Positions 20,689 through 48,567 of a DNA stretch of 64,000 nt are shown in pieces. Source of the DNA: Candidatus Poribacteria bacterium (GTDB lineage Bacteria; Poribacteria; WGA-4E; WGA-3G); assembly GCA_963665235.2 (NCBI GenBank), contig CAXXLX010000002.1, positions 320,001 to 384,000 of the forward strand. Direction: 5' to 3'. The position numbers and the translations under genes were made by a program. The notes beneath the pieces are model-generated. The model was not told where the DNA came from. It saw only the letters and a program-made list of their open reading frames with translations, and made no database searches. The first letter of the stretch is position 1. Each line of letters starts with the position of its first letter.

Positions 20689-20702
20689 ACATATAGAGGT
20701 AA

Positions 20703-20777
20703 TGGAGGTGGCGGTCGGAATCGAACCGACGAATAAGAGTTTTGCAGACTCTGGCCTTACCACTTGGCTACGCCACC
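20703..20777 (-). tRNA. tRNA-Cys(GCA)
   Basis: GGTGGCGTAGCCAAGTGGTAAGGC...GGTTCGATTCC..CCA. Confidence 0.95.
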
Positions 20778-20781
20778 GGAA

Positions 20782-20856
20782 TGGAGCGGGAGACGAGATT
20801 TGAACTCGCGACCTCCACCTTGGCAAGGTGGAGCTCTACCACTGAGCTACTCCCGC
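20782..20856 (-). tRNA. tRNA-Gly(GCC)
   Basis: GCGGGAGTAGCTCAG...GTTCAAATC..CCA. Confidence 0.95.
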
Positions 20857-29701: not shown

Positions 29702-31093
29702 TTAGTTTCTGCGATTGTTTCCTTTCTTAACTCGAAGGAATGTCGGAATATCCCACGGTTTTTCCTGGTTTCCGGTATCCGTATTCTTATCATCGGGTTG
29801 TTCCGTATCGTCAGGCTGTTCTCTATCTGGTTGTGAGCTGTCTGCTTGACGGTTGGAGGTTCGTGTATTTCTAGCGGGAGGATTGGCACTTTCCTGCTCG
29901 TTGCCTCTTCTTCCGGCTGGCTGCCTTTCAGGTGTGGCTGCCTGCTCTCTTGGATAGGGGTTTCTTGCTGACCTGCTATCCGTTCTGCGGATTCGGCTGC
30001 CTTGTAAGATAGGAGTGCCTCGTTCGGTTTGGCGAAATCTTTGCGGAGAGTTCACAGCGTTCTGTCCGCCTGTCCCGGTGGGACTCGTTGGGCCTGTGCC
30101 AACGTAAGGTTCCCTGCCTTGGTCTGAATCTGAATCGAATCCGGTTGCGATGACAGTGACGAGGACTTCATCGTCGAGTTCCAATTCATTTTTGTTGACT
30201 AATCCGAAGATGGGTTCAGCGTTTTCGGATACGTCCCGGATGACTTTCATCGCCTCGTGCAATTCATGCATCATAAATCCGGGGGGGGCTGTAACATTGA
30301 CAATCATTCCGACTGCCCCTTGAATGTTTGTTTCTTCGAGGAGCGGTGAGGAGATAGCGGCTTCAGCGGCGATTTGCGCGCGATGGTCGCCGGTAGCTCT
30401 TCCCATGCCCATCAGGGCAGTGCCAGCGTCCCGCATAATGGTTTCGACATCGGCGAAGTCAACGTTAATTTCGCCAGCTTCGGTGATAATGTCGGAGATG
30501 CTTTGCACCCCATGCAAGAGGACTTTGTCGCCTTCTCGGAATGTTTCCGTTACCGGCATTTTCCTGTCCATTGCGTCAATGAGCCGTTGGTTCGGAACAA
30601 CGATGACCGAATCTGCGGTACTTCGAAGTTCTTGGAGTCCTACTTCCGCTTGTTCGGCGCGCCGGCGGCCCTCGAAATCGAAGGGACGCGTGACAATACC
30701 GATGGTTAACACCCCTTTTTCACGGGCAAGCGATGCGACAAACGGGGCTGCACCTGTACCAGTGCCGCCGCCCATGCCTGCGGTGATAAAGATCATGTTT
30801 GCACCATCAACGATTTCTTGCAAATGTTCTCGGTCCTCTTCGGCGGCTTTCCTGCCGATTTCTGGGTTTGCCCCGGCACCGAGGCCCTCTGTTGTGTTTA
30901 CACCAATCTGAATTTGTTCAGCCCCTACACATGTTCTCAGGGCTTGATGGTCCGTATTAACAGCATAAAATTCGATACCAGAGAGTCCGGCTTCAATCAT
31001 CCGCTTGACAGCATTTCCGCCTGCTCCGCCTACGCCGATAACTTTTATTCGTGCCGGTGAACTCTTAAATTCTTCTTGTTCAAATTCTATCAT
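29702..31093 (-). CDS. ftsZ: Cell division protein FtsZ
   Basis: GMGGGTGTG, NVDFAD, C-terminal DIPTFLR. Confidence 0.98.
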   Translation of the reverse strand: MIEFEQEEFKSSPARIKVIGVGGAGGNAVKRMIEAGLSGIEFYAVNTDHQALRTCVGAEQIQIGVNTTEGLGAGANPEIGRKAAEEDREHLQEIVDGANMIFITAGMGGGTGTGAAPFVASLAREKGVLTIGIVTRPFDFEGRRRAEQAEVGLQELRSTADSVIVVPNQRLIDAMDRKMPVTETFREGDKVLLHGVQSISDIITEAGEINVDFADVETIMRDAGTALMGMGRATGDHRAQIAAEAAISSPLLEETNIQGAVGMIVNVTAPPGFMMHELHEAMKVIRDVSENAEPIFGLVNKNELELDDEVLVTVIATGFDSDSDQGREPYVGTGPTSPTGTGGQNAVNSPQRFRQTERGTPILQGSRIRRTDSRSARNPYPREQAATPERQPAGRRGNEQESANPPARNTRTSNRQADSSQPDREQPDDTEQPDDKNTDTGNQEKPWDIPTFLRVKKGNNRRN

Positions 31094-31580
31094 TTTTCAT
31101 TTCAGTCGCCTTTGTGGCAAATAGTTCGATGCTGAGCTACATAGCGTGAGCATGGCATCAAATATTTTGATTGTGCTGCACGCTTCTATGCGTTAGCATT
31201 ATTCACCCCGTAGCAACCTATTCCTCCTTCGGCATGCACTTTGTCTTCTGTCGGAGTGCTCTCCTCGGAGCGCTCTCCTATGTCCCAATATAAGTGTTTT
31301 GAATCGTAGCCTCCGCTCACCTGCGGCCGTTGTTGCAGACAGGTTTGTTGTTAAATTAGCTTGTACCTATAGATGCAGGAGGTCCTTTATCTTAGGTATA
31401 TTATACAGTTACTTTAGAATTAAATCAACAAAATGTTTCATGGATGTTCTAAGGTTTGGACATTTTGTTGAAAATAGTTGTCAGAAAGAGGCGTTTTGAT
31501 GCTTTCCAAACCGGTTTGGTGCCTTGCGTCACCTCTTATAGAAAACGATTTGTCAGGGTTCTATAGGTTCACCTGACCTA

Positions 31581-32816
31581 CTAATAGCCGAACCATTCTT
31601 TTACGTGGCGGACGAGTCGGTGGAGCGGGCCCCTGCCTCGTTGCGATAATCGGGCGTGTCTTTCCGCTTGTTGTGAGTATTCACTGTAAAGCACTAATCC
31701 CAGCCCAGTAGCATACGTCGGATAATTGACACGGTCTGTCAGTCCCCCGAGTGTCTTTGGGTATCCGACTTGTGCGCGAAGCGGTATTATCTGTTCCGCC
31801 AATTCTGGCAGCCCTTCCATCAAGGCTGTTCCGCCTGTCAAAACAAGCCCGCCGGGGAGTTCCATGTCTCCAAGCTCACCAGCTATGTGTTCTAAAAGCT
31901 CGACCATCCGGTATTGAATCACTTCTGTGAGTTCAATTCGGCTGATAAAACGGGGGCGGTTGGAACCGCTGGCTATCTGAATGGGGTGAGCGTCATCGTC
32001 TTCCACCCATTCCATCCAGGCGCAGCCTCGGTGAAGTTTAAGTTCTTCTGCTGCGGGCAGTGTTACTTTTAGATATTGGGCTATATCTTTTGTCACGTGT
32101 TGTCCACCGACAGGAAACACTGCAGTGTGTTCAATAGCGTCTTCCTTATAGACAACGATTTCGGTCGTCTGGTCCCCGATATCGACGAGGGCACTGCCGA
32201 CTTTAATTTCATCGCGTGTCAGCACGCCATAAGCCGAGGCTAACGGGGCAACGGCGAGGGCTTCCACATTTGGGATTTCCGCTTTTTCCACGCTATTCAG
32301 TAGATTTTGGATGGCACTGATGCTCCCTGTTATGATATACGCATAGGCTTCCAGACGGGAACCGGACATACCAATAGGTTCCTTAATCTTGTTCTGCTTG
32401 TCAATGACGAAGTTTTGTTCAATGACGTGCAGAATGTGTTGATTATCTGGGATAATGGCATGTGCTTCAGCTGCAGTCATCGCCCTTTCGACATCGCCGT
32501 TGGTAATCTCTGTCGGGTTAGCCACCCTTACCATCCCGTGTGCAGTTTGTCCGACGACATGGTCCCCTGATATACCTACACACACCGCTTCTATTTTGAT
32601 ACCTGCCATCAATTCAGCATCCGAAATCGCTTCTCGGATTGCCTCGGCTGTTGAATTAATGTCAACGATAACGCCTTTCTGCAACCCTTCCGAGTTTGCA
32701 GTGCCAACCCCGATGATTTCCATCTGTGTATTCATGTTAGGCGTAGTGTGACCGACAACGACCGAAATCTTGCTTGAGCCGATATCTAACCCGGCGATGA
32801 TTGTTCCTTTTGCCAT
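31581..32816 (-). CDS. ftsA: Cell division protein FtsA
   Basis: GLDIGSSKI, VLTGG, YATGLGL. Confidence 0.96.
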   Translation of the reverse strand: MAKGTIIAGLDIGSSKISVVVGHTTPNMNTQMEIIGVGTANSEGLQKGVIVDINSTAEAIREAISDAELMAGIKIEAVCVGISGDHVVGQTAHGMVRVANPTEITNGDVERAMTAAEAHAIIPDNQHILHVIEQNFVIDKQNKIKEPIGMSGSRLEAYAYIITGSISAIQNLLNSVEKAEIPNVEALAVAPLASAYGVLTRDEIKVGSALVDIGDQTTEIVVYKEDAIEHTAVFPVGGQHVTKDIAQYLKVTLPAAEELKLHRGCAWMEWVEDDDAHPIQIASGSNRPRFISRIELTEVIQYRMVELLEHIAGELGDMELPGGLVLTGGTALMEGLPELAEQIIPLRAQVGYPKTLGGLTDRVNYPTYATGLGLVLYSEYSQQAERHARLSQRGRGPLHRLVRHVKEWFGY

Positions 32817-33908
32817 TTATCTGTTTTCACCTCCTAAATAAAGTGTATCTTCATATCGGGCATCTAAGTACTTGTAGTTCCTGAATGGGAACGGTGCTCT
32901 GTGGCTCGCTTGTTTTTTGTAGGCGGTGTCCTCCGCTTGTCGGGGGTCTCTGTTTTGAACCCGAACTACGGCGGTATTCGCTTGGGGGTGCTGCTTTGGG
33001 GCGTTTTCCGCTGCAGGCTCTTCTTCGGTTTGTAACAGGAGATGTGCACCCTGTTCCACAAATATAGCGATATGATGGACCCCTACCTCAATTAAATCTG
33101 CTGCAAGCCACACGGGCATCGACAAGGGGACCACCTGAATTTCAATTTTCTGCGGGACTCGTGCGTCAATCTGCTTAACCCGGCTTAGAAGTTCAGGCTC
33201 CTGCAACATCATGATATGTAAGACGCGCAGGCCGAGCTGCGTCGCCTCCGTTTCAATCTGTTCACCAATTTTCAGTACCCCTTTGCCTTCCTCCTGAATT
33301 AGCGGGAATCTATCTTGAAATTGGTCAGGTTCGATAGACTCTAATACATACCCTTTACCGTCTATCAGAAAGAAGTCGGTGCGCTTTTTGCGTGCTCGGG
33401 CACTTGTGCCGACTTGCTGTTGCACGTAAGCTAAGCGTGCAAAACGGCTCCGCTCCGTAATTTGGATAGTTAGCTGCCGTTTTGCCAAATTTTTAGAAAT
33501 CCGCGCCGATTTAATGTAGCTGAGATTTTCCTGTAAATATGCAGCAGCGCGTGTCTCCGAGTCGGTGACAATATTCTCCAGATTGGCCCCTAACACATCG
33601 TAGATTTGCCCTTCTGTATAGTGCACATTTCCGGAAAGTGCCAGGGATACATTTTCAACGTTGAAAAATCCGAGGACGATTTTCGATACGAACAGCAATG
33701 TGACCAAAACAGCCCCTAAGACTGCGATGCGTCGGGCTCGGTATTTATCGGATTTTTTCCTTTTGAGCACAACATGCATCGGACGCGTGTTCTGCGTTGA
33801 GGGCGTTTGAGATTTTTTCACACCTCTGGCTCGCCTGCGCTGTTGTTGCAGGCGGATTTCTGACGAGGATAAGACGGTCTGTCGCGAACGAGAGGCAACG
33901 TTTTTCAT
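32817..33908 (-). CDS. ftsQ: FtsQ/DivIB-like protein
   Basis: Single TM, POTRA-like region, C-terminal YLDARY; lies between murC and ftsA. Confidence 0.75.
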   Translation of the reverse strand: MKNVASRSRQTVLSSSEIRLQQQRRRARGVKKSQTPSTQNTRPMHVVLKRKKSDKYRARRIAVLGAVLVTLLFVSKIVLGFFNVENVSLALSGNVHYTEGQIYDVLGANLENIVTDSETRAAAYLQENLSYIKSARISKNLAKRQLTIQITERSRFARLAYVQQQVGTSARARKKRTDFFLIDGKGYVLESIEPDQFQDRFPLIQEEGKGVLKIGEQIETEATQLGLRVLHIMMLQEPELLSRVKQIDARVPQKIEIQVVPLSMPVWLAADLIEVGVHHIAIFVEQGAHLLLQTEEEPAAENAPKQHPQANTAVVRVQNRDPRQAEDTAYKKQASHRAPFPFRNYKYLDARYEDTLYLGGENR

Positions 33909-35275
33909 TTTTCTCTTTTCCTTAAAAATTCGTGTCCAACGTTCACGATGTCCCCAGCACCTAGTGTGATGACTAAGTCATTCGGGCGCGTAATTTCCAT
34001 CAATATGTCTACTATCTTATCCATATCCGCTGCGTAAATTACATTCGGATGCCCATGTGCCTCTATTGCCCGCGCCAAATTTTCGCCAGTCACATTCTCT
34101 ATCGGTTGCTCACCGGCCCCATAGATTGATGTCACAATTAGGACATCTGCCTGATAAAAAGCACGCGAAAACTCTTCAGCTAAATCTCTGACTCGGGCAT
34201 ATCGGTGGGGTTGGAAAACAGCGACAATTCGCCGGTTGTATCCATCCCGTGCTCCCTGGAGGGCTGCTCTCAGTTTGGCTGGATTATGTGCGTAATCATC
34301 CACGACAATAATATCATCCTGATCTTCAAGCACCTCAAAACGGCGATGCACCCCCTGAAACCTCTCAAGTTCCTGCCGAATCAGGTCAAACGGAAGCTCC
34401 AATTCAAGACCGACCGCAATTGCGGCTAACGAATTGGCAATGTTGTGCCGCCCTGGCATCTTAAGATGAACCTCGCCGTAGGCATCACCATTTTTCTTAA
34501 CCTGATACCGTGAGGTGGGCCCCTCAATCCGAATGTTATCGGCTATGATGTCTGCGCGCGTTTCCAAACCGTACGTCACAAATTTTTTCCTTATCTCCGG
34601 GATAAACTTTTGAATGTTTTCCTGGTCAAGGCACAAAACGGCTGTTCCGTAAAACGGAACCTTATTAATAAAGTTCAGAAACGTTTTGCCGATTTCATCG
34701 ATATCGTTGTAATAGTCTAGATGGTCAGCATCTACAGAGGTTACGACAGCAATAGTGGGATAGAACATCTCTATTGAGCCGTACGCTTCGTCTGCTTCAA
34801 CGACCATGACTTCTCCGTGTCCACTGCGAGCGTTACTCCCTCCCATCAGTTTACCGCCTACGACTACTGTCGGATCAAGTGAGGCTAAAACGGCGGATGT
34901 CATTGCGGTTGTAGTTGTTTTTCCGTGCGTTCCACTTACAGCGATGCTGTAACTCATCCGCGTAATCTCGTTCAACATCTCCGCCCCCCGGACGATGGGG
35001 ATTTTTTCATGAATGGCTGTTTGTAATTCCGGATTGTCCGAGGGAATAGCGGGCGACATGACAACGACATCGGCACCTTCAACCTGGCATGCAGTGTGCC
35101 TGTACCATATCTTTGCGCCATGTGCTTCGAGATTCTCTGTTGTGCTCGAACGCTGCAGGTCAGAGCCTGTCACATGAAAACCTTGGTCTATAAGCACTTT
35201 GGCAATTCCGCTCAAACCTGCCCCGCCTATGCCTATAATATGAATGTGTCGCGTCTTTCCAAATTTTTGAATCAT
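33905..35275 (-). CDS. murC: UDP-N-acetylmuramate-L-alanine ligase
   Basis: GIGGAGLS, GTHGKTTTT, DDYAHNP, FQPHRY. Confidence 0.97.
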   Translation of the reverse strand: MIQKFGKTRHIHIIGIGGAGLSGIAKVLIDQGFHVTGSDLQRSSTTENLEAHGAKIWYRHTACQVEGADVVVMSPAIPSDNPELQTAIHEKIPIVRGAEMLNEITRMSYSIAVSGTHGKTTTTAMTSAVLASLDPTVVVGGKLMGGSNARSGHGEVMVVEADEAYGSIEMFYPTIAVVTSVDADHLDYYNDIDEIGKTFLNFINKVPFYGTAVLCLDQENIQKFIPEIRKKFVTYGLETRADIIADNIRIEGPTSRYQVKKNGDAYGEVHLKMPGRHNIANSLAAIAVGLELELPFDLIRQELERFQGVHRRFEVLEDQDDIIVVDDYAHNPAKLRAALQGARDGYNRRIVAVFQPHRYARVRDLAEEFSRAFYQADVLIVTSIYGAGEQPIENVTGENLARAIEAHGHPNVIYAADMDKIVDILMEITRPNDLVITLGAGDIVNVGHEFLRKREK

Positions 35276-36456
35276 GAAGCCTCCGTTTGCCTACCACTGC
35301 GGACTGCCGATGAAGGGTGTGCCGCTGCGAGCCGATAAATTGATTCAGCAATTGTATCGCTTGCAAATGGGCGGCCGAGCCCTTCGCTCGCTGTTTTCAT
35401 CTGCCGATAGGTCTCTTCATCTGTAACAATATGTATCAGCTTTGACACAAGTGCTTCAACTGTCAATTGCTCCTGTTCAAAAACGATGGCGGCTCCAGCA
35501 CTTGCAACAGTCTCCGCGTTCCTGACCTGATTATTGCCAACAGCCGCAGGTAAGGGTATAAAAATTGCAGGAATACCGCACGCGGTCACTTCCGAAACGG
35601 TCATGCCCCCTGCCCTACAAATCATGACATCTGTAATGCTATAAATTTCCTCAACCTGCTCGAAAAAGGGCTGCACGTGATGCCGTATCCCCCACTTCTC
35701 GTAGGCCGCCCGAACTCGCTCGGCATCTGTCTTCCCAGTTTGATGCACGACTTGTAGCAGAGACGCTGCAGCTTCAGCAAGCAGCGGACTCGCTTCTATC
35801 ATTGCGTCATTAACAGCACGGGCACCTTGGCTCCCGCCCATCACAAACACCGTTTTAACCCCTGCCAGGTCTCCGTCGCTGGTGAGGGAGATGGGGGGTA
35901 TCAGGTTCAGCTTCCGATAGGTCTCTGCACGCCGCGGGTAGCTTGTTATCCCGGGACGAATCGGGTTGCCTGTTACCTCTACAATATTCTCCGGGAAACG
36001 TTGTGCCTCCGGGGTTAATGCAAGATATGCCGCCTTGGCCCTTCTTGCAAGCAGGCAATTTGTTAAACCGGGTGAGGCGTTTTGCTCCTGTATCGCTGTC
36101 GGTATACCCAGTAGGGACGCAGCAAACAGCACCGGGCCTGATACATACCCACCCGTACCGATAACAACATCCGGACGAAGTTGTCTCAGATACTTCAAAG
36201 ACTGTAAGAGCCCCAGGCAGCTTTTGGAGATAACCGGAAACCACCGCCATGTCACTCGACGCGGGAAACCTTCAACGGTAATAGGTAAAAACTGAAAACC
36301 TACTTGCGGGACCAACGTTGCCTCTAAACGTCCTTTGCCTCCGATAAAAACGATATCCACGTTCGGATTGCGCCGCTGAAGGGCTTGTGCAATACCGATA
36401 GCAGGATAAATATGCCCGCCTGTCCCGCCGCCTGCCAAAACAAATTTTTGAATCAT
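35272..36456 (-). CDS. murG: Lipid II GlcNAc transferase
   Basis: GGGTGGHIYP, GGSQGA. Confidence 0.97.
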   Translation of the reverse strand: MIQKFVLAGGGTGGHIYPAIGIAQALQRRNPNVDIVFIGGKGRLEATLVPQVGFQFLPITVEGFPRRVTWRWFPVISKSCLGLLQSLKYLRQLRPDVVIGTGGYVSGPVLFAASLLGIPTAIQEQNASPGLTNCLLARRAKAAYLALTPEAQRFPENIVEVTGNPIRPGITSYPRRAETYRKLNLIPPISLTSDGDLAGVKTVFVMGGSQGARAVNDAMIEASPLLAEAAASLLQVVHQTGKTDAERVRAAYEKWGIRHHVQPFFEQVEEIYSITDVMICRAGGMTVSEVTACGIPAIFIPLPAAVGNNQVRNAETVASAGAAIVFEQEQLTVEALVSKLIHIVTDEETYRQMKTASEGLGRPFASDTIAESIYRLAAAHPSSAVRSGRQTEAS

Positions 36457-36557
36457 GTGGCCTCCGTTCGCCTGCTGCCGTTGTTGCAGGCGGGGTTGTT
36501 CCTAAAAAATCTCACAATCATGAGATGAGGTGTTGTGAATTTGACATGTACTGTCTG

Positions 36558-37745
36558 TCAACGTTGTGTTTTCTGTACATGACGGGAAACGTTCAAAAGC
36601 ATCCCAACGCTTACCAAACTAACTACCAGGGATGAACCGCCGTAACTCAGAAACGGAAGTGTAATCCCCTTTGTGGGCAACAGTCCTGTTACAACGCCAA
36701 TATTGATGAACGCTTGTAGCCCAATAACGATTGTCAGTCCTGTTGCAAATAGTGCCCCAAACCGGTCCTCTGTGTGCATCGCGATAGAGATGCCACGCCA
36801 AATAAAAATCATAAAGATAAGCGTGACACTCCCTGTTCCGATAAATCCGAATTCTTCTGCCAGTACCGAGAAAATAAAATCTGTATGCGGATACGGCAAA
36901 TAATTTATTTTCGCAACGCTCTCGTCAATGCCGACCCCGAATAGGCCTCCCCATCTCAGCGCATTTAGGGAACGTTCCAACTGATAGCCAATCTCACCTG
37001 TTGATTGTAAGGATGCCCAATAATCTGTTAAACGTTTCAAACGGTAAGGGTCCATCATAATAAACACTGCTAATACCGCCACGCCAACGCCTGCCAATAT
37101 AAGGGTTTGTGAGAAGCGAATCCCCCCTACGAAAAGCAGAAACCCCACCGTTGCAGCTAGCAGCACAGCGGAACCGAAATCCGGTTGGGCGGCTACTAGG
37201 GCAAATGCTGACCCCAGCACGATGACGTTCGGCAGAACGCCGTTGAAAAAACTCTTGATACGTTCCGGATTTCGTGCTAAAAAACGCGCCGTGTGGATAA
37301 TCAACGCAATTTTCGCAAATTCCACCGGTTGAAACCGGAGCCCTCCTCTTTCTATCCAGCGATTAAATCTTCCGCCCGCCGCCCCCTGAACAGCACTCCC
37401 GAACCAAGGCGTGAATACCAAAATTAACCCTACAAACGCCAGAATAAGCAATTTCGTACTGTGTCTTTCATAAAATCGATACGGAATATAGGAAGCCACT
37501 CCCATCCCTATCAAGCCGATGATGCACGCGATTACCTGCACCTTTAAATAGCGGTAACTATCACCGTCATACTTTATCGCCGATAGCAGGTGACCGGCAC
37601 TGTAAACCATCAAAATACCTATCCCAACTGAGCATAGCGTGACGGCAAGTAGGACAGCATCAGCTTTGCCTGACCCAGCACTTGGTGCCTCTGTTCTCTC
37701 AATTTGCTGCGTGCGCGAATACGAATGATTAAGGGTTTGAATCAT
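36558..37745 (-). CDS. ftsW: SEDS family protein FtsW
   Basis: QPVEFAK, HTDFIFS, LPFLSYGGSS; start MIQTLN. Confidence 0.95.
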   Translation of the reverse strand: MIQTLNHSYSRTQQIERTEAPSAGSGKADAVLLAVTLCSVGIGILMVYSAGHLLSAIKYDGDSYRYLKVQVIACIIGLIGMGVASYIPYRFYERHSTKLLILAFVGLILVFTPWFGSAVQGAAGGRFNRWIERGGLRFQPVEFAKIALIIHTARFLARNPERIKSFFNGVLPNVIVLGSAFALVAAQPDFGSAVLLAATVGFLLFVGGIRFSQTLILAGVGVAVLAVFIMMDPYRLKRLTDYWASLQSTGEIGYQLERSLNALRWGGLFGVGIDESVAKINYLPYPHTDFIFSVLAEEFGFIGTGSVTLIFMIFIWRGISIAMHTEDRFGALFATGLTIVIGLQAFINIGVVTGLLPTKGITLPFLSYGGSSLVVSLVSVGMLLNVSRHVQKTQR

Positions 37746-39285
37746 TTGACCTCCCCTCGCCTGCTTTGAGTGCATTCACAGCCTTTTTAAAGGCATCTCC
37801 ACGTGCTTTATAGTCCGTATACATATCAAAACTTGCGTTCGCCGGTGATAAAAGGACGATATCCCCGGGGATTGCATGCCGATACGCAACACTAACGGCA
37901 TCTTCCATCGTCGCAGCATGCCACATATCGCTGCATCCAGCAAGTGTCTGCTCTATGTACTGTGTATGTTCCCCAAGTAAGACTAAGCCTTTAACAGTCG
38001 TCCCAACAAGTTCAGTGAGTGCTGCGTAATCGTTCCCTTTATCGTAACCGCCTATGATTAAAAGCACGCGTTTCGAGGTGCTAGCTTGTGTGAACATGCC
38101 TGCGACCGATTCAAGTGCTGCAGCTGTTGCTATGACGTTCGTTGCCTTAGAATCGTTTATAAATTCTACATCGTTGATGAGGGTTACCTTTTCAAAAGCG
38201 TGCTCTAGTGCAGGGTGCCCTCTATTAAATTCTATGAGGGCCTGTCGCATCGCCGCGGGGGTTACCTCAAAAATCGTTCCGACGGTTATGGCTGCAAGCG
38301 CGTTTCGCACATTATGTGCTCCTGCCAACGGCATATCGGTTATATCACAAACCCACTGCTCTCGGTTGTTCCTATTCGCGTAGATGCCAATCGTGTTTCC
38401 ATTCTTTTTAAGTCGTGTGTCTGTCCTGCTGGTCTGCCTATGCGTTTCCTCTGCTAACCCTGCTGTTTGCGTTTCTTCTGCTAACCCCCCTGCTTGTGTT
38501 TCCTCTGCTAACCCCCCTGCTTGTGGGGGGGATATGGGGGGGCCGCAGCCCGTATCTGTGAAGTATGCTTTTTGAGCAGCTGTCACCTGCCCAAAGCTTC
38601 TCACTGTTGCATCATCGGCATTTAGGACTATCCACTCCGCGTCTGTCTGGTTAGCATATATCTTCCGCTTAGCGTTACAGTAAGCCTCCATGGTACGGTG
38701 TCGGTCAAGATGGTCGCGTGAGAAATTCAGCACAACACTCACCGCAGGCCGAAAAGTTTCAGTAGTTTCTAACTGAAAACTGCTCGTCTCAACGACTGCT
38801 ATATCGTCGGGGGTGAGCGTTAAAACCTCGTTCGCTAATGGAACCCCAATATTTCCGGCAACCGCAACCTTACCAAACATGTTGCTTTCCTTCAGAATCG
38901 CTGCTGTCAACAGCGTCGTCGTTGATTTCCCTTTTGTCCCTGTGATAGCGACAATAGGGGCTTGACAGAGACTTGCCGATACCTCTAACTCACCCAAAAT
39001 CGGGATGCCGTTTTGCTGTGCTTCGTGCAGAATCGGAATATCCAACGGGACCCCAGGAGATACCACAATTAACGCAGCGTTGGCGATACACGCGGCTTCA
39101 TGCCCACCCAGGTGAAATTGAACCGCGGTCCCCTTCAACTGTGCTATCTCTGCGGACAATGCATCGGCATCACGCATATCCGTAACGGAAACAGATGCAC
39201 CGAATTTATTTAGCAGCTTCGCAATTGCAATCCCACTTCGGTTCGCCCCGAAAACAGTGATAGGTAATTGGTAATCGGTTTTCAT
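37729..39285 (-). CDS. murD: UDP-MurNAc-L-Ala-D-Glu ligase
   Basis: GTKGKSTT, DHLDRH, NDSKATN, LLSPANASFD. Confidence 0.95.
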   Translation of the reverse strand: MKTDYQLPITVFGANRSGIAIAKLLNKFGASVSVTDMRDADALSAEIAQLKGTAVQFHLGGHEAACIANAALIVVSPGVPLDIPILHEAQQNGIPILGELEVSASLCQAPIVAITGTKGKSTTTLLTAAILKESNMFGKVAVAGNIGVPLANEVLTLTPDDIAVVETSSFQLETTETFRPAVSVVLNFSRDHLDRHRTMEAYCNAKRKIYANQTDAEWIVLNADDATVRSFGQVTAAQKAYFTDTGCGPPISPPQAGGLAEETQAGGLAEETQTAGLAEETHRQTSRTDTRLKKNGNTIGIYANRNNREQWVCDITDMPLAGAHNVRNALAAITVGTIFEVTPAAMRQALIEFNRGHPALEHAFEKVTLINDVEFINDSKATNVIATAAALESVAGMFTQASTSKRVLLIIGGYDKGNDYAALTELVGTTVKGLVLLGEHTQYIEQTLAGCSDMWHAATMEDAVSVAYRHAIPGDIVLLSPANASFDMYTDYKARGDAFKKAVNALKAGEGRSNDSNP

Positions 39286-39305
39286 GAGCCATTAACCATT
39301 TCCCT

Positions 39306-40436
39306 TTATCTCAATTTTAGCGTACTTAACGCAAGCAGCATCAAAATCAGCCCAACAATCCAAAAACGGATAACGACTTTAGATTCCTTCCAGCCCGAAA
39401 GCAAAAAATGATAATGAAGCGGAGACATCTTGATAACACGTTTCCCAAATGTTCTGTAAGACCATACCTGAATGATAACCGATAACGCCTCCGCTACAAA
39501 GATACCGCCAACGATGATGAGGAGAAATTCCTGTTTTACCAATAGGGCAGCAGTCCCAAGCGTCGCGCCGAGCGTTAAGGAGCCTGTATCTCCCATAAAA
39601 AGTTGAGCGGGGTGCCCATTGTACCATAAAAACCCTAACCCTGCCCCTACTAAGGCCGCACAAAAAACCGTTGCAACTTCTCCTGCAATAGGTAGGTGAA
39701 AAATATTCAGGTAGTCTGCCCCGATACTGTGACTCGTCATATACCCTAACACACTGAAGGTGACGGCAACTAAGAGGGTGCATCCAATAGCTAGGCCATC
39801 CATACCATCTGTCAGATTAACCGCGTTTGAAGTTCCAACAATCACCAAGGTTGCAAAAGGGATAAATAGAATGCCGAGATTCGGCTGCAAATCCTTGAAA
39901 AACGGGAGACTCAGCGAGGTCCGGACGGCAATATCGCTTGCCTCCGCTGCTGCTATAGGCGGGCCCCACTTATAAAGATAGAAGGCAATAGCTAAGCCGC
40001 CTACAGTTTGCAGTGCTATTTTATGCCACCCGCGTAACCCGAGTGATTGCCCTTTGCTGATTTTGCTTATATCGTCCAGGAAACCCAACCCGCCAAAGTA
40101 CAGTGTCGTGAAAAGCATAAGATAGATATACGGCTGATCGAGACGGGCCCAGAAGAGCACAGATATAAGCACCGAAACAATGATAAGGATACCGCCCATT
40201 GTTGGCGTGCCTGCTTTACCCTGCTTCTCGCTACTCTCTTGTGCCTTTTCCACCTCCTCCTGAATATGCTCCCCGATACGTAGCTGTTTCAACCGAGCTA
40301 TCATAAACGGGCCCAGGACGAGGGAGATAATCAGCGCGGTCGCGGTTGCATAAATTGCGCGGAAGCTGATATAACGAAAAATATTGAAAGGCGAAAACAG
40401 CTCTAGGAGGTTTTCAAAAAACAGATGATAAAACAA
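39306..40436 (-). CDS. mraY: Phospho-MurNAc-pentapeptide transferase
   Basis: KAGTPTMGG, NLTDGMDG, FMGDTGSL; likely TTG start (MFYHLF). Confidence 0.95.
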   Translation of the reverse strand: MFYHLFFENLLELFSPFNIFRYISFRAIYATATALIISLVLGPFMIARLKQLRIGEHIQEEVEKAQESSEKQGKAGTPTMGGILIIVSVLISVLFWARLDQPYIYLMLFTTLYFGGLGFLDDISKISKGQSLGLRGWHKIALQTVGGLAIAFYLYKWGPPIAAAEASDIAVRTSLSLPFFKDLQPNLGILFIPFATLVIVGTSNAVNLTDGMDGLAIGCTLLVAVTFSVLGYMTSHSIGADYLNIFHLPIAGEVATVFCAALVGAGLGFLWYNGHPAQLFMGDTGSLTLGATLGTAALLVKQEFLLIIVGGIFVAEALSVIIQVWSYRTFGKRVIKMSPLHYHFLLSGWKESKVVIRFWIVGLILMLLALSTLKLR

Positions 40437-40647
40437 TTGAATCGTAGCCTCCGCTCGCCTGCGACCTGACTGTTGACTTCGCTGGCTATTGGCTTCGCTG
40501 GTTATTGGCTTGTGGCTTGTGGCTATTAGCAAGAGAAAGAGGACTCTAAAGCGCGTCAGAAACCTATTTAGAATCTGAAACTCTTGCCAATTGCCAATCG
40601 CTAATCGCCAATGAGCTAATCGCCATACTACAACAAACCGCAAGGAA

Positions 40648-41856
40648 CTATGAAAGCTTCCCTAAATTTGCCTCCACCTGATTAAGCAAGTTCGTTGCGT
40701 AAGAATAGACTAATCTATTCTTCTGTTCATGTGTTTCAACAGCAAGTTCAATCAGTTGTGACACTAACTCCGGAAACGAAATCCCAACGGGATCCCACAG
40801 GTAAAAACTGAAGGAGCCAGGGATAGTATTGATTTCATTCACGTAAACTTCTTCATCGCTATCGAGCAAAAAATCGATTCGTGCAACGCCTGCACAATTA
40901 ATTGCCTGAAATGTTGCCGTAGCGAGTTTCTGTATATGTAACGTCAATTCTTCCGAAATCGGTGCAGGAATTTCACGTTGCGCCCCTGCCATCCCGGAAG
41001 ATACCCCCCCAATGTCCTCTGTAGTAGTGGGAGGACTATCGGTTGTTTCCTCCCTCTGATGGATATATTTATCGTCGAAACTGAGGAAATTGTTACTACT
41101 AATCGGTTTTTCACAGACAGAAGCGGTCGGCGTGTGTGTTCCCATCACGGCGCAGTTAATTTCAGAAGCGTTTTCTATACCCTGTTCAACGAGCACGCGA
41201 TGGCAATATCGGCAGGCAAGCTCGATAGCCTGCCGAAGCGTGTCCGTATCTGTTGCTTGACTTACCCCAATACTTGACCCGCTGACTGCTGGCTTAACGA
41301 ACACTGGATACGACAACCGCGATTCAACTTCTTTTAGGATAGCCACATCTGCTGTATTCCAGCCGTGCTTTGTCACAGGGAGATAGGGGAGTATCGGCAG
41401 TCCGTTCTCACTGAGGGCTGCTTTCATCATGATTTTATCCATGCCGACACTAGACCCTAGGACACCTGCGCCGATGTATGGGATATTCATGAGTTCAAGT
41501 AACCCTTGGAGAGACCCATCTTCTCCGTGTACGCCGTGAATTGCTGGAAATGCTACGTCGACCGGAAGTTCCGTTTTTTTACGCCGCCAGCCGGGCCGAC
41601 TCGGTGCTGCAACGAATTTCGGTGTCCCCTTAAACTCCACAGTGACCCTATTAAAATCGGAGGCGCGAGGGAGCGTTCCGCTGGTGAATGTGCTCAGTTC
41701 ATTGAGACCATCCCCTGTTAACCATTCCCCCGTTTTGGTAATATAAATCGGGATAACCTCATAATTTTCCGCCAATGCAGTATTGACCTGATGTGCCGTA
41801 ACGATGGAGACTTCGTGTTCAGGCGAGCGTCCGCCAAATATGAGAGCCACCTTCAT
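40648..41856 (-). CDS. ddl: D-alanine-D-alanine ligase
   Basis: FGGRSPEHEVS, HGVHGEDG, NEINTIPG. Confidence 0.95.
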   Translation of the reverse strand: MKVALIFGGRSPEHEVSIVTAHQVNTALAENYEVIPIYITKTGEWLTGDGLNELSTFTSGTLPRASDFNRVTVEFKGTPKFVAAPSRPGWRRKKTELPVDVAFPAIHGVHGEDGSLQGLLELMNIPYIGAGVLGSSVGMDKIMMKAALSENGLPILPYLPVTKHGWNTADVAILKEVESRLSYPVFVKPAVSGSSIGVSQATDTDTLRQAIELACRYCHRVLVEQGIENASEINCAVMGTHTPTASVCEKPISSNNFLSFDDKYIHQREETTDSPPTTTEDIGGVSSGMAGAQREIPAPISEELTLHIQKLATATFQAINCAGVARIDFLLDSDEEVYVNEINTIPGSFSFYLWDPVGISFPELVSQLIELAVETHEQKNRLVYSYATNLLNQVEANLGKLS

Positions 41857-41912
41857 CAAATTCTTCGGGCAGAAAAACCTCACCTTTTAAGGCGGAGAGG
41901 AGTGCCCGCTCC
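41857..41912 (+). mobile_element. IS200/IS605 left-end relic abutting the ddl start codon
   Basis: TCAT|CAAATTCTTCGG + hairpin, same pattern as the IsrB element ends. Confidence 0.55.
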
Positions 41913-42130
41913 TTTGCATCCGCATTGTCGGACGCTAGTTTTTTTGACCTTTTTGTTTTCTTCACATCTAAATAGTAGCAGTCGGAATGGGTTGTAGTTG
42001 CCTGAGAAGCAGGCTTGATGAAGATTAATTTTTAAAATTCGGAACGGATGATAAATCACCTACTACGAGCCCTTACTGAACTATTTATTTAAACTTTATA
42101 CAGATTATGTTACAAAAGTGGTGCCTTAGA

Positions 42131-42285
42131 TTAACGCGAGTTTGAAAAAAGTTTTGACCTAGAGTATTCTCTGGTAGTTTTAGGAAAAACCCGCACAAAC
42201 TAAAAGTTTATGCTACAATTACACCGCTTTTTTCGCGGTGAAAAGGTTTGGAGCAAACGGATATTTATTATCAAGTTCACGTTAG
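42131..42285. mobile_element. Second copy of the TTAACGCGAG MITE
   Basis: Aligns with 5680-5837. Confidence 0.75.
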
Positions 42286-42337
42286 ATTAGTAAGAAACCG
42301 CCTGCAACACCGGCGCAGGCGAGCGGAGGCCAATGAT

Positions 42338-43978
42338 TCAAAGACCTGTTTCGTTGTAGTTATCGGGTAAATCGTTCTCAAAAAGGACCACATCGCCCGG
42401 TTTTACGCGTTTTTCCAGCTGCTGCTGTGCCTCAGCAAAGTCAGCAGCAACAAAAACTTGCTGCTGCGGATAATTAGCGGCCTTGAGCCCATCTATAATG
42501 GGCACCGTTCTCATTTTCCCTACCAAAATAATAAAATCGCACACCCTTGCAGCTTCCGAACCGAAATGCTTATTTTCATCATATTCACGTTCACCTAATT
42601 CTACCATCCCGGGGGTTACCAGAATCTTTTTCCGGTGCTTCTCACTCGTAAAGTCGTTAAGAACGTCGAGAGCTGTTTTCGCTCCCAAGGGATTTGCATT
42701 GAAACTGTCGTCAATAACGGTCACACCTGCCTCGCCATCTATCAACTGTAAACGGTGCGGTACCGATTGTAAGGTTTCAACTGCCTCCCGAATTTCATGC
42801 AGCGTCATGCCGCACGTCAACGCAACACCTACTGCAGCGAGGATATTGGAGACGTTATGCTGACCCAACAACCGGGTTGTCATCACAACACTCCCAGCAA
42901 CATCGTCTATCACGGTAAACGTTAACCCTTTGTAGCTCTGCTCAATCTGGGATGCTCTCAATTTCACTACCGTGTCGTCAGCCGATGTGGGCGACATGCT
43001 CTGGATACCGTACCGGATAACTGGCACATGTTCAGTCTTATCGGCAAGTTTTGCACAGATTTCGTTATCTACATTGATGACAGCGAGCCCATCTGGGGGG
43101 AGCGATTCGATTAGCTCATATTTCGCACGGGTGGTATTTTCAATGCTCTTAAATCGCTCTAAATGTTGCGGCCCGACGGCGGTAAGTATGCCGATAGATG
43201 GCGATGCAAGATTACACAGCTGCCGGATATCACCACGTTTATAGGCACCCATCTCAACGATAAACAGCTCGTGCTCCTCTGACAAATCACCCCGAATCAC
43301 CTTACAAATGCCCATCGGCGTGTTATAACTATCCGGTGTCATCAACGTGTTAAACTTTCGTGACAAAATCTGGTGTAGAATATATTTCGTGCTCGTCTTT
43401 CCGTAGCTGCCTGTGATTCCGATAACTTTAGGTTGAAGTGTCTTAAGTCTCCGTTTTGCATCGCGTAAATACGCACCGTTTATGAGACGTTCCAACGGCC
43501 AAATTAAAAGGTTGCTCACAACTAGATTCAACGTTGTCAGTTCACTGAAAAGAAAAAGCGATACGCGCCACCTATTCTCTCTTAAACCGAGAGCTAACCC
43601 GATGGCGAGTACTGATAGCAGTGCAAGGGACAGACCGAAAACCCGTTTTGCCCGGGCGGTATAAACGAGCGGTTTTTTCGCAGGAGGCTTCTTCTTACCA
43701 ACAATTTGATAGGTTTGAAACGCAATCCAAGCGAGACAGACTGCCGGAAAAACCCAATTCGTTTGACCCGCAGGATATCCCCACGTTAGTAGAATCAGGA
43801 AACCTGCTCCAAGGCAAATATCTTCAATCGCGAAGCAGCGCCTCGGATGCATCCAAATCCATTTCAGATAACGTCCCGTTTTATAGCCATCCAATTGGAG
43901 TATGTGGAGTCCGTGTGTTGTTCTAAAAACTGCCCTTACGAAACAGGCAAAAACTACGAGATAGAAAAATAGAATCAT
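42338..43978 (-). CDS. murF: MurF with an N-terminal membrane domain
   Basis: GITGSYGKTSTK, SYNTPMG, DDSFNANP, FENDLPD; several N-terminal TM segments. Confidence 0.92.
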   Translation of the reverse strand: MILFFYLVVFACFVRAVFRTTHGLHILQLDGYKTGRYLKWIWMHPRRCFAIEDICLGAGFLILLTWGYPAGQTNWVFPAVCLAWIAFQTYQIVGKKKPPAKKPLVYTARAKRVFGLSLALLSVLAIGLALGLRENRWRVSLFLFSELTTLNLVVSNLLIWPLERLINGAYLRDAKRRLKTLQPKVIGITGSYGKTSTKYILHQILSRKFNTLMTPDSYNTPMGICKVIRGDLSEEHELFIVEMGAYKRGDIRQLCNLASPSIGILTAVGPQHLERFKSIENTTRAKYELIESLPPDGLAVINVDNEICAKLADKTEHVPVIRYGIQSMSPTSADDTVVKLRASQIEQSYKGLTFTVIDDVAGSVVMTTRLLGQHNVSNILAAVGVALTCGMTLHEIREAVETLQSVPHRLQLIDGEAGVTVIDDSFNANPLGAKTALDVLNDFTSEKHRKKILVTPGMVELGEREYDENKHFGSEAARVCDFIILVGKMRTVPIIDGLKAANYPQQQVFVAADFAEAQQQLEKRVKPGDVVLFENDLPDNYNETGL

Positions 43979-43995
43979 GTGGCCTCTGTGCATCG

Positions 43996-44772
43996 CTATT
44001 GTGTTGATGCTAAAAAGGTTGTTACGTGTTGTCGAAACTGGGGAAATTGGTCGAGATAAGAGAAATGCCCAGCATCTTTAAGGATGACCAATTCGGTGTC
44101 CGGTATTTCCTTCTCCATTATTTTTCCGAAGGAGACAGGGGTATCCTTATCGTTTTCTCCCCAAATTAATAACGTAGATGCCCTGATTTTTGGGAGAAGC
44201 GGTCGCAAATCCTGCTTAACAGACTTGACAAGCGTTGCTCGCATCGTCCCCGCATTCCGATAATCTGTCGAACCTGCCCGTTCTGACAGGATATCCGCCC
44301 AGTTGTTACCGAAGGTGCCGCAACGTCTCAGCAAGCGTCCAATTTTTGAAAGGCTCACCCGCATATAGTATTTCGCGTTTCTGCGTTTGAGCCCGGCACT
44401 ATTCACTAAAATTAGTTTATCTACGTTTTCCGGTGCCTCGGCTGCCATCACTATGGAAATTCTGCCGCCGTAAGAATGGCCGATGAGATGTGCCTTGTCA
44501 ATACCAATTTTGTCAAAAAAGGCTGAAAGACATCGGGCATAGTCGGTTGCATTCCAGCCTGTCAAAGGCGGTTCGCTCAACCCGAAACCGGGGAGGTCAA
44601 GTGCATAAACCTTGTATGAAGGCGAAAGCCACTCAAAAATAGGCGTAAAACTGTTCGATTCTGCACCCCACCCGTGTAGCAGCACAACAGTTTCACCTTC
44701 CCCCGCAACCTGATATGAAATCTTTAACCCATTAATTTCTATGAACAAATTCTGAGGCGACTTTTCGGTCAT
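43996..44772 (-). CDS. Alpha/beta hydrolase
   Basis: LLHGWG, DLPGFG, GHSYGG, AGHFSYLD. Confidence 0.9.
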   Translation of the reverse strand: MTEKSPQNLFIEINGLKISYQVAGEGETVVLLHGWGAESNSFTPIFEWLSPSYKVYALDLPGFGLSEPPLTGWNATDYARCLSAFFDKIGIDKAHLIGHSYGGRISIVMAAEAPENVDKLILVNSAGLKRRNAKYYMRVSLSKIGRLLRRCGTFGNNWADILSERAGSTDYRNAGTMRATLVKSVKQDLRPLLPKIRASTLLIWGENDKDTPVSFGKIMEKEIPDTELVILKDAGHFSYLDQFPQFRQHVTTFLASTQ

Positions 44773-46252
44773 CGAATGGGAACCGTTCGCCATGAATTTC
44801 CTGGTAGTCCTCATGTCCTTTTCCTGCAATGACGACGATATCCCCTGGATTTGCATGCGCGATTGCATATTGAATCGCTTCGCGTCTCTCCGGGATACAC
44901 AAATATGCTGCACCATGTGGTAAATTTGATACAATTTCTTTAATGATTTCATTAGGGTTTTCCGTGCGCGGATTGTCGGAGGTAATCACACTTAAATCAG
45001 CCAATTCGAGGGAAATTTTCCCCATTTTGGGTCTTTTTTTCCTATCTCGGTCCCCGCCACAGCCGAAAACGGCGATTAATTTTCCATCTGTGATATTGCG
45101 TGCGGCGGTCAGTACATTTTCCAAACCATCAGGGGTGTGTGCATAATCTACGATGACAGCGAAATCCTGTTCCATCTTATTCGCGGCGGTAACAAGCTCA
45201 AAACGCCCAGGGACGACAGTTGCAGCGAGCCCGTGGCGAATCGCTGCCGGGCTACAATTGTAACGCATCCCCACCCCTATTGCAGCAAGGGCATTGTAAA
45301 CATTATAATTCCCGAGTAGATGAATAGTCGCCTGAATCTTCCGGCTTACGTTGTTTTTTAAAGCTTTATTACCGTTCTCGCTCTGCACCACTGTAAACGC
45401 TAGCTCCTTCAGGGATACTGCTATATCGCGCGCCTGCAAATCGGCATCCGTTTCAATGCCGTACCGTAAAATGTTTGCATGTGGCAAGTGCTTCGCTATG
45501 CGTGGTGTAGCTGGTGAATCGGCGTTTAAGATTGCTACGCCTTCCGGACTGAGTTGTGAGAACAGCATTAGTTTAGCAGCGAAGTAGTTCTCCATTGTGC
45601 CGTGGTAGTCTAAATGGTCTTGCGTTAGGTTGGTAAAGACAGCTGTATGATATGTGAGCCCTGTCAATCGGTGTTGTGCAAGTCCCTGGGAGGAGGTTTC
45701 CATAACGACATATTCAATGCCTGCATCAGCCATCTGTTTTAGCAGTGCGTGAAGTTGAAATGCATCGGGGGTCGTCAGTTGTGCGGGAATATCAATTTTT
45801 GTCGGGGATTTTGCGTCTGTTTCATAGGTATGTCCAACTGTTCCGAGTACAGCGGTTTTCAGCCCGTGTGCCTTCAGAATGCCGTATGTCAGATGTGCTG
45901 TTGAAGTTTTTCCGTTTGTGCCAGTGATACCGATGAGTTTCAATCGTCTTGCGGGGTTCCCATGCCAATTAGCGGCACTTAAGGCTTGAGCACACCGGCC
46001 GTTAGCGGTCCTAATGTATGTTACACCTATAGGCACCTCGGATGTGTGCTTTTCTGCGATGATTGCTCGCGCCCCGTTTTGAATCGCCCCGGCAATAAAG
46101 CGGTGTCCATCAACGTTTAAACCTTCATAGCAGATAAAGGCGTATCCGGGCTTGACTTTCCGGTGGTCGCTGACAACCCCTGTGATTTCTACATTGTGTT
46201 CCCCTGTGATGTCTATGATTTCAATACCGTTCAGAAGCTCCTGGAGTTTCAT
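44732..46252 (-). CDS. murE: UDP-MurNAc-tripeptide synthetase (meso-DAP type)
   Basis: GTNGKTST, DYAHTPD, DNPR, GKGHE. Confidence 0.96.
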   Translation of the reverse strand: MKLQELLNGIEIIDITGEHNVEITGVVSDHRKVKPGYAFICYEGLNVDGHRFIAGAIQNGARAIIAEKHTSEVPIGVTYIRTANGRCAQALSAANWHGNPARRLKLIGITGTNGKTSTAHLTYGILKAHGLKTAVLGTVGHTYETDAKSPTKIDIPAQLTTPDAFQLHALLKQMADAGIEYVVMETSSQGLAQHRLTGLTYHTAVFTNLTQDHLDYHGTMENYFAAKLMLFSQLSPEGVAILNADSPATPRIAKHLPHANILRYGIETDADLQARDIAVSLKELAFTVVQSENGNKALKNNVSRKIQATIHLLGNYNVYNALAAIGVGMRYNCSPAAIRHGLAATVVPGRFELVTAANKMEQDFAVIVDYAHTPDGLENVLTAARNITDGKLIAVFGCGGDRDRKKRPKMGKISLELADLSVITSDNPRTENPNEIIKEIVSNLPHGAAYLCIPERREAIQYAIAHANPGDIVVIAGKGHEDYQEIHGERFPFDDRKVASEFVHRN

Positions 46253-48215: not shown

Positions 48216-48539
48216 TTATTTATCCTGGAGCCGCTGTGTTTCGCCAGTCCATTCCTCCATCCCCAACTCTTTCGCAATTTGACGCACCCGCTTCACTTCA
48301 GTTAATGTTTCCACCACCAGCTCCAACTTATGAATTTCATGTTGAGTTTGGCTGCGTTGCTTCTGAAACACTGGCCCCTGCCGAAGCACAACCCGCTTTG
48401 CATAAGATGAAAACCAGACGCTGGCACTAAAAACACATAAAGCTAGTGCTAACACTACGTAGACAATCGAAATTGTCAATTTCGGTTTGCGTTCCTCTTT
48501 TTCTTCAGTTTGTGTTGTGTACTTGTTTGAATTCCGCAT
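48216..48539 (-). CDS. ftsL: FtsL-like bitopic protein
   Basis: TM plus coiled coil, RVRQIAKELGM; lies between rsmH and ftsI. Confidence 0.7.
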   Translation of the reverse strand: MRNSNKYTTQTEEKEERKPKLTISIVYVVLALALCVFSASVWFSSYAKRVVLRQGPVFQKQRSQTQHEIHKLELVVETLTEVKRVRQIAKELGMEEWTGETQRLQDK

Positions 48540-48567
48540 CTTTAAATCTATACGTTCAATTTCAAGG

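Follow-up and report, generated by a model that had tools for sequence, protein, structure and literature searches.

The division and cell-wall (dcw) gene cluster of a Candidatus Poribacteria bacterium carries copies of a short, hairpin-bearing repeat, and these copies give several of its genes their Shine-Dalgarno (SD) sequence and first codons. The window, i.e., the whole 64-kb stretch of DNA analysed here, is contig C2 320001-384000 of genome G000 (assembly 5.31 Mb, four contigs, 47.7% G+C), and the cluster lies on its minus strand, as confirmed by Pfam. Coordinates below are those of the window unless a contig is named. The copies belong to one family of non-coding interspersed repeats of about 50-75 nt, which is restricted to a clade of at least three genera in one bacterial family. 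This family is probably a proliferating hairpin repeat, whose copies supply the ribosome-binding site (RBS) and start of downstream genes and which has spread best locally.

A first-pass annotation, made from the sequence of the window, had described the repeat at eight places in the dcw cluster. All eight hold the described sequence: seven are statistically supported in nhmmer, an iterated profile search of the genome (E<1e-3), and the eighth is a 15-nt fragment. The nhmmer spans of the seven are 31291-31360, 33822-33872, 35261-35297, 36439-36508, 37728-37765, 40428-40466 and 42282-42350, the last on the plus strand. The core 16-mer GCAGGCGAGCGGAGGC with up to three mismatches occurs six times in the window vs 0.26 expected, and 0/100 shuffles reach six. 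Over the whole window, R1, a covariance model built from 31 copies, finds six of the seven dcw copies at E<=0.001 and no other match. The earlier statement that no copies occur elsewhere in the window is thus right, but it does not extend to the genome, where 34 further copies reach E<1e-3. The copies in the cluster are the following.

36438..36512, minus strand: murG copy, full-length (R1 82.8 bits, E 1e-18; nhmmer E 3e-18)
35257..35321, minus strand: murC copy, 3' half, GTAGGCAAACGGAGGCTTCATGATTCAAAAA (nhmmer E 1.5e-5; R1 E 6e-4)
37728..37765, minus strand: ftsW copy, 3' half (nhmmer E 2.4e-5)
40427..40507, minus strand: mraY copy, 3' half (nhmmer E 3.9e-7; R1 E 7.5e-4)
31289..31361, minus strand: ftsA-ftsZ spacer copy, full-length (R1 74.5 bits)
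33806..33874, minus strand: ftsQ copy, decayed and in frame (R1 47.4 bits, E 2.5e-9)
42280..42351, plus strand: inverted copy at the murF 3' end, full-length (R1 73.6 bits)
43972..43988, minus strand: murF-start fragment, AGAGGCCACATGATTC (not significant by nhmmer or R1)

As the first-pass annotation had read them, three copies provide SD and start to murG, murC and ftsW, with the frames running from the element's own ATG. The murG copy consists, in order, of a -10-like box, the hairpin CGCCTGC/GCAGGCG, GGAGG and ATG ATT CAA, with which murG begins (ATG 36456-36454). SD and start of murC (ATG 35275-35273) come from the murC copy, where the same ATGA contains the murG stop; the MurG tail ...SGRQTEAS is encoded within this copy. 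The ftsW copy brings SD and start (ATG 37745-37743), and the murD frame crosses it to a stop at 37729. The copies at murC, ftsW and mraY are limited to the 3' half, because the upstream gene or another repeat fills the remainder. In the mraY copy, ACG stands at the position expected for ATG (40445-40443), and the start of mraY is most likely TTG 40436-40434. ACG also replaces ATG in the ftsA-ftsZ spacer copy, which opens a short frame only and lies about 200 nt 5' of the ftsZ ATG (31093), with a promoter-like site upstream (31428-31400). The ftsQ copy corresponds to about residues 17-29, IRLQQQRRRARGV, of the open reading frame (ORF) from ATG at 33908. The inverted copy provides the stop of murF, as had been claimed: TGA 42340-42338 falls within the reverse complement of ATGATTCAAAG. 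On its own strand this copy has an 8-codon frame only, and it is the top-ranked terminator-like site of the region (9 pairs, tail TTTCTTACTA). The murF-start fragment has a 15-nt exact match to the murG copy (43972-43986, GAGGCCACATGATTC), a 15-mer found nowhere else in the genome, and the probable start of murF is ATG 43978-43976 (MIL...). The full-length copies (murG, ftsA-ftsZ spacer and inverted) have the arrangement TAAnTTAnnAAnAAACC-CGCCTGC-AACAACGGC(n)-GCAGGCG-AGCGGAGGC-nCC-ATGATTCAAA.

Where a copy comes to lie at the beginning of a gene, the native RBS and start give way to those of the element, and the product therefore begins with MIQ, as do MurG, MurC and FtsW here from the element's own ATG. 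MurG orthologs of 19 relatives (52-75% identical) begin with MIQ in 0/19 cases and have an element upstream in 0/19 cases, and R2, a second covariance model made from the sister-genus copies described below, detects no significant copy in the murG-murC loci of these relatives. MurC begins with MFGKT, MLGKT or MFGAT in 19/19 relatives and with MIQK followed by FGKT here, so that ATGATTCAAAAA occupies the place of the ancestral ATG. Matches to MurG in the relatives end at query residue 374-386 of 394, in agreement with the ...SGRQTEAS tail being read from the murC copy. The pattern GGAG-N4-9-ATGATTCAA is found 24 times in this genome vs 0-5 times in each of 30 relatives, and ATGATTCAA is the genome's most frequent SD-preceded start 9-mer. 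Element-free orthologs of MurG and MurC thus do not begin with MIQ, and the earlier idea of a domesticated repeat supplying SD and first codons is borne out by this comparison and by the multi-copy nature of the family. Searches for same-genus relatives by MurG protein patterns found none in genome contigs or metagenome contigs, and a degenerate element pattern had no match in metagenome contigs. Two Xenorhabdus genome contigs with one match apiece to the degenerate pattern were treated as chance.

In the whole genome, nhmmer detects 41 copies at E<1e-3 (57 at E<=1), 34 of them outside the dcw cluster, and R1 detects 49 at E<=1, of which 36 reach E<0.01. In 21/41 copies, an ORF of >=100 amino acids (aa) starts at the ATG or GTG of the element itself, with GGAGG 4-5 nt upstream. 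An ORF start (>=100 aa) lies within -8 to +22 nt of 29/41 copies vs 14% of 5000 random windows, a strong start-codon bias genome-wide. For 11/41 copies there is no ORF of >=60 aa starting there, which agrees with a repeat that inserts at random and then decays. All copies except the one at the murF end (40/41) point into the downstream region, and this one alone sits at a 3' end. On a rough ORF map, the 5' side has a same-strand ORF for 26 copies (within 150 nt for 13) and a divergent one for 11, and four copies lie within an ORF; the element therefore occurs both within operons and at first genes.

Downstream genes, as identified by Pfam, encode GyrB, GyrA, TopA, Era, CarB, shikimate dehydrogenase, MurJ and AnmK; a DegT aminotransferase, a GFO/IDH/MocA oxidoreductase, two phosphoribosyltransferases, PurL and lipoyl synthase; two sulfatases, a TonB-dependent receptor, a VIT-VWA protein, a MacB/FtsX permease, UPF0182 and an RraA-like protein; and PPK2, a solute-binding protein, a methyltransferase, an ABC auxiliary protein and three proteins without family. 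The genes served are unrelated, and the reading of the element as specific to the dcw cluster is not supported.

The unit consists, from 5' to 3', of a -10-like AT-rich box with TCAGAAACC, a stem, GAGCGGAGG, and an A/T-rich tail abutting the start codon. The stem has 7-9 bp of variable sequence, and the loop (G/A)ACAACGG(C/A) is invariant. In this genome the tail is CC-ATG-ATT-CAA-A, and GGAGG lies 4-5 nt upstream of the start. The -10-like TAAnTT/TTAG box is positioned about 10 nt 5' of the hairpin in the conserved unit, no -35 is conserved, and a sigma-70 consensus scan reported no site at elements. Covariation of the stem was evaluated in 57 copies. Changes occur on both sides in 7/7 pairs; compensatory cells number 37 vs 10.0 (sd 2.4) in shuffles, 0/500 of which reach 37; and 85.8% of cells are paired vs 34-48% when partners are slid. 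These figures lean high because the alignment follows the model and includes related sequences, but the pattern is still plain by eye, and the hairpin is kept by compensatory changes. A first count, restricted to this genome's copies in a MAFFT alignment, gave weak support (17/500 shuffles reach it), partly because six rows were shifted by one column, and RNAalifold returned no consensus structure for the gapped nhmmer alignment. Predicted centroid folds of this genome's full copies have the hairpin closed and GGAGG and AUG unpaired. Elsewhere in the genome (G000:C1:946189-946276), a divergent gene pair has one different hairpin (CCTATCG/CGATAGG) between two SD-ATG modules, one of them of the GGAGGCATCATGATTCAAAAA type.

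The exact core is missing from 18 genomes of the same family, and R1 detects weaker copies in two sister genera, g6 and g4. Their stems differ and yet pair (GCTTGC/GCAAGC, GTTTTC/GAAAAC, GATTTT/AAAATC, GCCCGC/GCGGGC). The loop (G/A)ACAACGG(C/A), the 5' TCAGAAACC and the 3' GAGCrGArrCC-CAATArTTAAAAA are constant. Counts of R2 matches per genome at E<=0.01 are lower bounds, with 119 candidates scored in each genome: 40 in G003, the sole g4 genome; 26, 13, 33, 40, 4, 7, 44, 6 and 46 in nine g6 genomes; and 25 in the present genome (genus g1). Each of three g2 genomes has one weak match, g10 has one match in 1/5 genomes, matches occur in 0/9 g3 genomes and 0/2 g5 genomes, and the other families f3 and f4 have none. 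The proposed scan of the genome and its relatives with a covariance model thus places the family in g1, g4 and g6, with the 41 nhmmer copies of this genome enriched in the dcw cluster.

In the sister genera, ATG and an open frame follow 13/23 copies, 12 of them at offset -8 to 0 from the element end, after TTAAAAA; in the antisense control this is found for 4/23 copies, with one in the -8 to 0 range. The distance between the ATG and a GGAG-like box is 16-20 nt in these genera, and the box is frequently degenerate. An older unit thus appears to have acquired its working SD-ATG pair in the lineage of the present genome, through a change of ATA to ATG in the tail. Genus g6 has, in addition, a long-form subfamily (L085-L090, L102), in which the same hairpin is followed, 35-45 nt on, by a second module, CCGCAAGG or its complement CCTTGCG, which continues with AATTAAAAA and then ATG. 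By eye only, the stretch before murC in G005 (L010) and, more weakly, in G003 resembles this second module.

Judged from its sequences, the family behaves as a proliferating repeat. Twenty copies sampled from the 40 in G003 are nearly identical, and 8/20 have no ORF of >=60 aa starting nearby. In the same genome, 49-nt units abut head to tail, one copy lies within a 112-nt tandem unit, and in one copy (L124 230-330) a 44-nt G+C-rich foreign hairpin replaces the ACAACGG loop, with a normal copy abutting it. The present genome has two tandem copies before topA and a third back to back. It is rich in further repeat families, and 5/32 full copies come immediately after another high-copy repeat. 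Within genus g6, genomes differ tenfold in their number of copies (4 to 46).

Several observations point to local copying. The dcw cluster holds 7/41 copies in 11 kb, with a maximum of 4 in 500 random placements. Across the genome, 22/41 copies have a neighbour within 12 kb, a number that averaged 6.9 and never exceeded 18 in 2000 random trials. The nearest relative lies inside the dcw cluster for 5/7 dcw copies, and three long k-mers are unique to dcw pairs. For example, the murG and murC copies are identical at 31/36 positions and have in common a 17-mer found nowhere else, and the ftsZ-upstream and mraY copies have in common the ATG-to-ACG change and a 16-mer unique in the genome. Sequence comparison shows in this way that dcw copies derive from one another. 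Their enrichment is explained by local copying or gene conversion because they are mutual nearest relatives, and selection for co-regulation is unneeded. Further local groups are carB/pyrR-like, gyrB/gyrA, topA and four copies at C1 1.861-1.870 Mb.

It is very improbable, and contradicted by the alignment, that the copies lack common descent and that selection at each gene separately produced similar, optimal initiation regions (GGAGG, spacing and A/U-rich early codons). A/U-rich early codons are generally favoured, and the shortest matches comprise CGGAGG-N4-5-ATGATTCAAA only. However, the similarity spans 70 nt, including the loop and 5' box, which have no role in initiation; copies without an ORF and an inverted copy exist; long k-mers are common only to neighbouring copies; and relatives with the same translation apparatus have only 0-5 such starts.

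Other repeats adjoin several of the copies. Upstream of mraY (40499-40627) lies a second repeat family with CCAAT/GCCAAT-like heptamers, which has dozens of BLAST matches on C2 (237 lines), and similar blocks are found 5' of several other copies. A repeat of about 160 bp (42127-42290) adjoins the inverted copy. At least 13 more copies of it, 87-92% identical, are present on C2 alone, and parts of it occur elsewhere as 30-35-nt tandem arrays; its depth is very high in 4/4 metagenome runs. Logan contigs were matched at a likeness threshold of 85 and call for caution. In contigs of X6 (DNA run; side 50, depth 20.5) and X7 (RNA library), 41845-42349 is replaced by 38 other letters, a form that lacks the ddl-murF spacer together with the inverted copy and its 160-bp neighbour. 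A further contig of X6 has 9 nt missing within the murC copy. These variants fit unstable, recently remodelled spacers.

The first-pass annotation had likened the element to repetitive extragenic palindromic (REP) sequences of the GTAG type. Such an element, or one derived from IS200/IS605 insertion sequences, would be a single-stranded DNA hairpin moved by a Y1 (HUH) transposase or a REP-associated tyrosine transposase (RAYT), with RBS and ATG as passengers. Like REPs and bacterial interspersed mosaic elements, the units are short G+C-rich hairpin repeats in tens of copies, mosaic or nested with other repeats. Conserved loop and flanks of the hairpin agree with this origin, the genome has 13 matches to Y1_Tnp (PF01797), one of them in the window (19792-20142, minus strand), and Y1_Tnp is present in every element-bearing genome searched. 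The unit ends in TTCAA, and the right-end cleavage site of IS608 is TCAA. Nevertheless, the origin is improbable, and the likeness to GTAG REPs fails on several counts. GTAG is absent from both strands of the consensus of 31 aligned copies; it is read antisense in two ACG copies only, those upstream of ftsZ and at mraY, in which alone CTAC precedes GATTCAA. Of ten Y1 genes examined, none has an element within 600 nt, even at E<=100. Y1_Tnp is common across the whole order and equally present in genera without the element (7/9 g3 genomes; 34 matches in one g5 genome). The units are single, have one hairpin and not two ends, and are placed 5' of genes and co-oriented with them, unlike REPs, which lie mostly at gene 3' ends or between convergent genes and often as inverted pairs. 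The Y1 genes lie in repeats of their own of >1.1 kb, in a few families, and therefore resemble IS200/IS605-type insertion sequences and not RAYTs. Identity with miniature inverted-repeat transposable elements was also rejected, with no terminal inverted repeats in 31 aligned copies and no common direct duplication, by eye, in the flanks of 32 copies.

By published description only, the closest known kind appears to be the REP2/IR-A type, and the likeness would be one of design, not of descent. REP2 of Neisseria (also CREN) is described as 26 copies of 120-150 bp with two stem-loops, a promoter, an RBS and ATG, without terminal inverted repeats and with an unknown mode of spread (PMC3184786). 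The same review describes Borrelia plasmid sequences IR-A/IR-B as similar to REP2, with promoter, RBS and ATG (PMC3184786). All are multi-copy, intergenic and directly upstream of ORFs, with RBS and ATG fused to the ORF, an arrangement found here immediately 5' of ORFs in the 21/41 copies mentioned. An internal stem-loop without terminal inverted repeats is common to REP2 and the present family, which has one covarying hairpin of 7 bp and consensus ends, TTAGTCAGAAACC and CCATGATTCAAA, that are not complementary. REP2 has two stem-loops, 120-150 bp and a reported promoter, whereas the present unit has one hairpin, 50-75 nt and a putative promoter. Unlike REP2, this family is found in several genera, where its stems covary around a loop that does not change, and it serves housekeeping genes and sits inside an operon.

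Mycobacterial interspersed repetitive units (MIRUs) are short and sit between the genes of operons; the small frames within them overlap the flanking stop and start, suggesting translational coupling, and the ATGA stop/start overlap of murG/murC is similar. MIRUs are tandem direct repeats without a hairpin-plus-SD design, and they are not known to supplant the first codons of the gene that follows. Rickettsia palindromic elements are described, along with other repeats, as fused in frame with genes (PMC3184786). The in-frame ftsQ copy and the C-terminal tails of MurG and MurD, which are read from the element, are of this kind, but the majority of copies here mark the start of a gene and do not lie within one. 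In Rfam 15, the murG copy and 12 copies from three genera matched nothing below E 0.5, and the window matched only three tRNAs at the gathering threshold. A full-text literature search, supplements excluded, retrieved no description of this repeat.

The first-pass annotation had also considered a shared RNA element coordinating cell-wall genes. In its wider form, this is a cis-regulatory RNA leader, in which a protein or small RNA reads the ACAACGG loop and the GGAG box and controls translation or stability. The resulting post-transcriptional regulon would have recruited division, cell-wall, DNA-topology and nucleotide-synthesis genes in this genome. Such a regulon is unlikely, although it accounts for a loop that is invariant and stems that covary across three genera, for copies that share the orientation of the gene they precede and keep a constant spacing to its ATG, and for a gene list that includes murC, murG, ftsW, mraY, murJ, anmK, gyrA, gyrB, topA, era, carB, a pyrR-like gene and purL. 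REP2 would be a precedent, being reported 5' of 14 co-regulated Neisseria genes (PMC3184786). However, 34/41 copies lie outside the dcw cluster before unrelated genes, and sister-genus copies precede other genes still. In G003, nine downstream proteins (from 20 sampled of 40 copies) are DUF5131, SNF2 helicase, WD40 protein, subtilase, DUF3800, EF-G and three without family, and regulon coherence was not found among them. Gene sets are wholly different between genomes and include sulfatases, the TonB receptor, the WD40 protein and phage-type DUF5131. The element is absent 5' of MurG in 19 relatives, with no significant R2 match in their murG-murC loci. Tandem, nested and ORF-less copies, numbers from 4 to 46 within one genus and the descent of dcw copies from one another also speak against a regulon, and no candidate factor was identified. 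From the earlier interpretation, the repeat that supplies starts is retained; co-regulation of cell-wall genes, as first stated, is not supported, and the comparison with REPs fails.

Several points nonetheless weigh against a proliferating repeat. Neither a mobilising enzyme nor target-site duplications or terminal inverted repeats were found, and the link to a Y1 transposase was rejected, having neither a flanking element nor a phyletic correlation. Folding energies of single copies are like those of shuffles (z -2.4 to +0.3), and G-U vs A-C counts of 17 vs 11 leave the folding strand undecided. The fixed distance between copy and ATG (13/23 sister-genus copies) and the conserved loop fit a regulator-read leader equally well. 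Finally, the genes served lean to growth functions, i.e., peptidoglycan, DNA topology and nucleotide synthesis. The invariance of the loop points to recognition of the hairpin by some protein, and the ACAACGG-loop hairpin may, tentatively, be the handle of a protein, either a new mobilising enzyme or an RNA-binding regulator, a proposal held with more doubt than confidence.

On the dcw mRNA, each copy would probably work as a self-contained cis cassette for translation initiation, in which the hairpin just 5' of the SD would keep SD and AUG unpaired whatever lies upstream. The hairpin may also shield a 5' end that arises at an internal promoter or through processing; protection of transcript 5' ends by 5'-terminal stem-loops is established. 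At murG/murC, the ATGA of the element would couple termination and initiation, and the inverted copy after murF would be read as a terminator or 3' hairpin. Spread would take place by a copy-and-paste or gene-conversion process, most effective locally.

The dcw genes were assigned with Pfam as follows.

48571-49572, minus strand: RsmH
48219-48659, minus strand: FtsL
46252-48147, minus strand: PBP
44735-46252, minus strand: MurE
43999-44952, minus strand: alpha/beta hydrolase
42341-43993, minus strand: MurF (551 aa)
40651-41883, minus strand: Ddl
39309-40436, minus strand: MraY (PF00953)
37732-39285, minus strand: MurD
36561-37745, minus strand: FtsW (PF01098), from the element's ATG
35275-36456, minus strand: MurG (PF03033/PF04101)
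33908-35275, minus strand: MurC
32820-33908, minus strand: FtsQ, POTRA domain downstream of the in-frame repeat copy
31584-32816, minus strand: FtsA
29705-31093, minus strand: FtsZ

RsmH, FtsL and PBP are upstream as usual. MraZ (PF02381) has no match in the whole genome, which is 92.6% complete, and the earlier remark that the cluster lacks mraZ is correct to this extent. Two genes are odd for a dcw cluster, the alpha/beta-hydrolase gene between murE and murF and ddl between murF and mraY. In MurF, the ligase middle domain (Pfam) begins only at residue 193, and the first ~100 residues form an unusual, hydrophobic N-terminal extension. MurD has three in-frame tandem 27-nt units (QAGGLAEET-like; ~38430-38545, minus strand) between its middle and C-terminal ligase domains. 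The three tRNA genes, the sole Rfam matches in the window, lie in succession at 20615-20856 on the minus strand.

The repeat, selfish in appearance, rewrites the starts and first residues of core genes (murG, murC, ftsW, gyrA, gyrB, topA, era, carB) without breaking them. Within one genus, this is the bacterial equivalent of regulatory rewiring by transposons. Gene annotation is affected too: orthologs are no guide to start codons and N-termini in this clade, and ORF-less copies may mislead gene callers. The element is a compact natural 'insulated RBS' design, and its covarying hairpin with a fixed loop provides a testable handle on a copying or reading factor. If this factor is a mobilising enzyme, the family would be a non-autonomous element whose cargo is a portable RBS and start codon that overwrites the N-termini of essential genes. 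If it is an RNA-binding regulator, the repeat would wire new genes, here those of the division and cell-wall cluster, into a post-transcriptional network.

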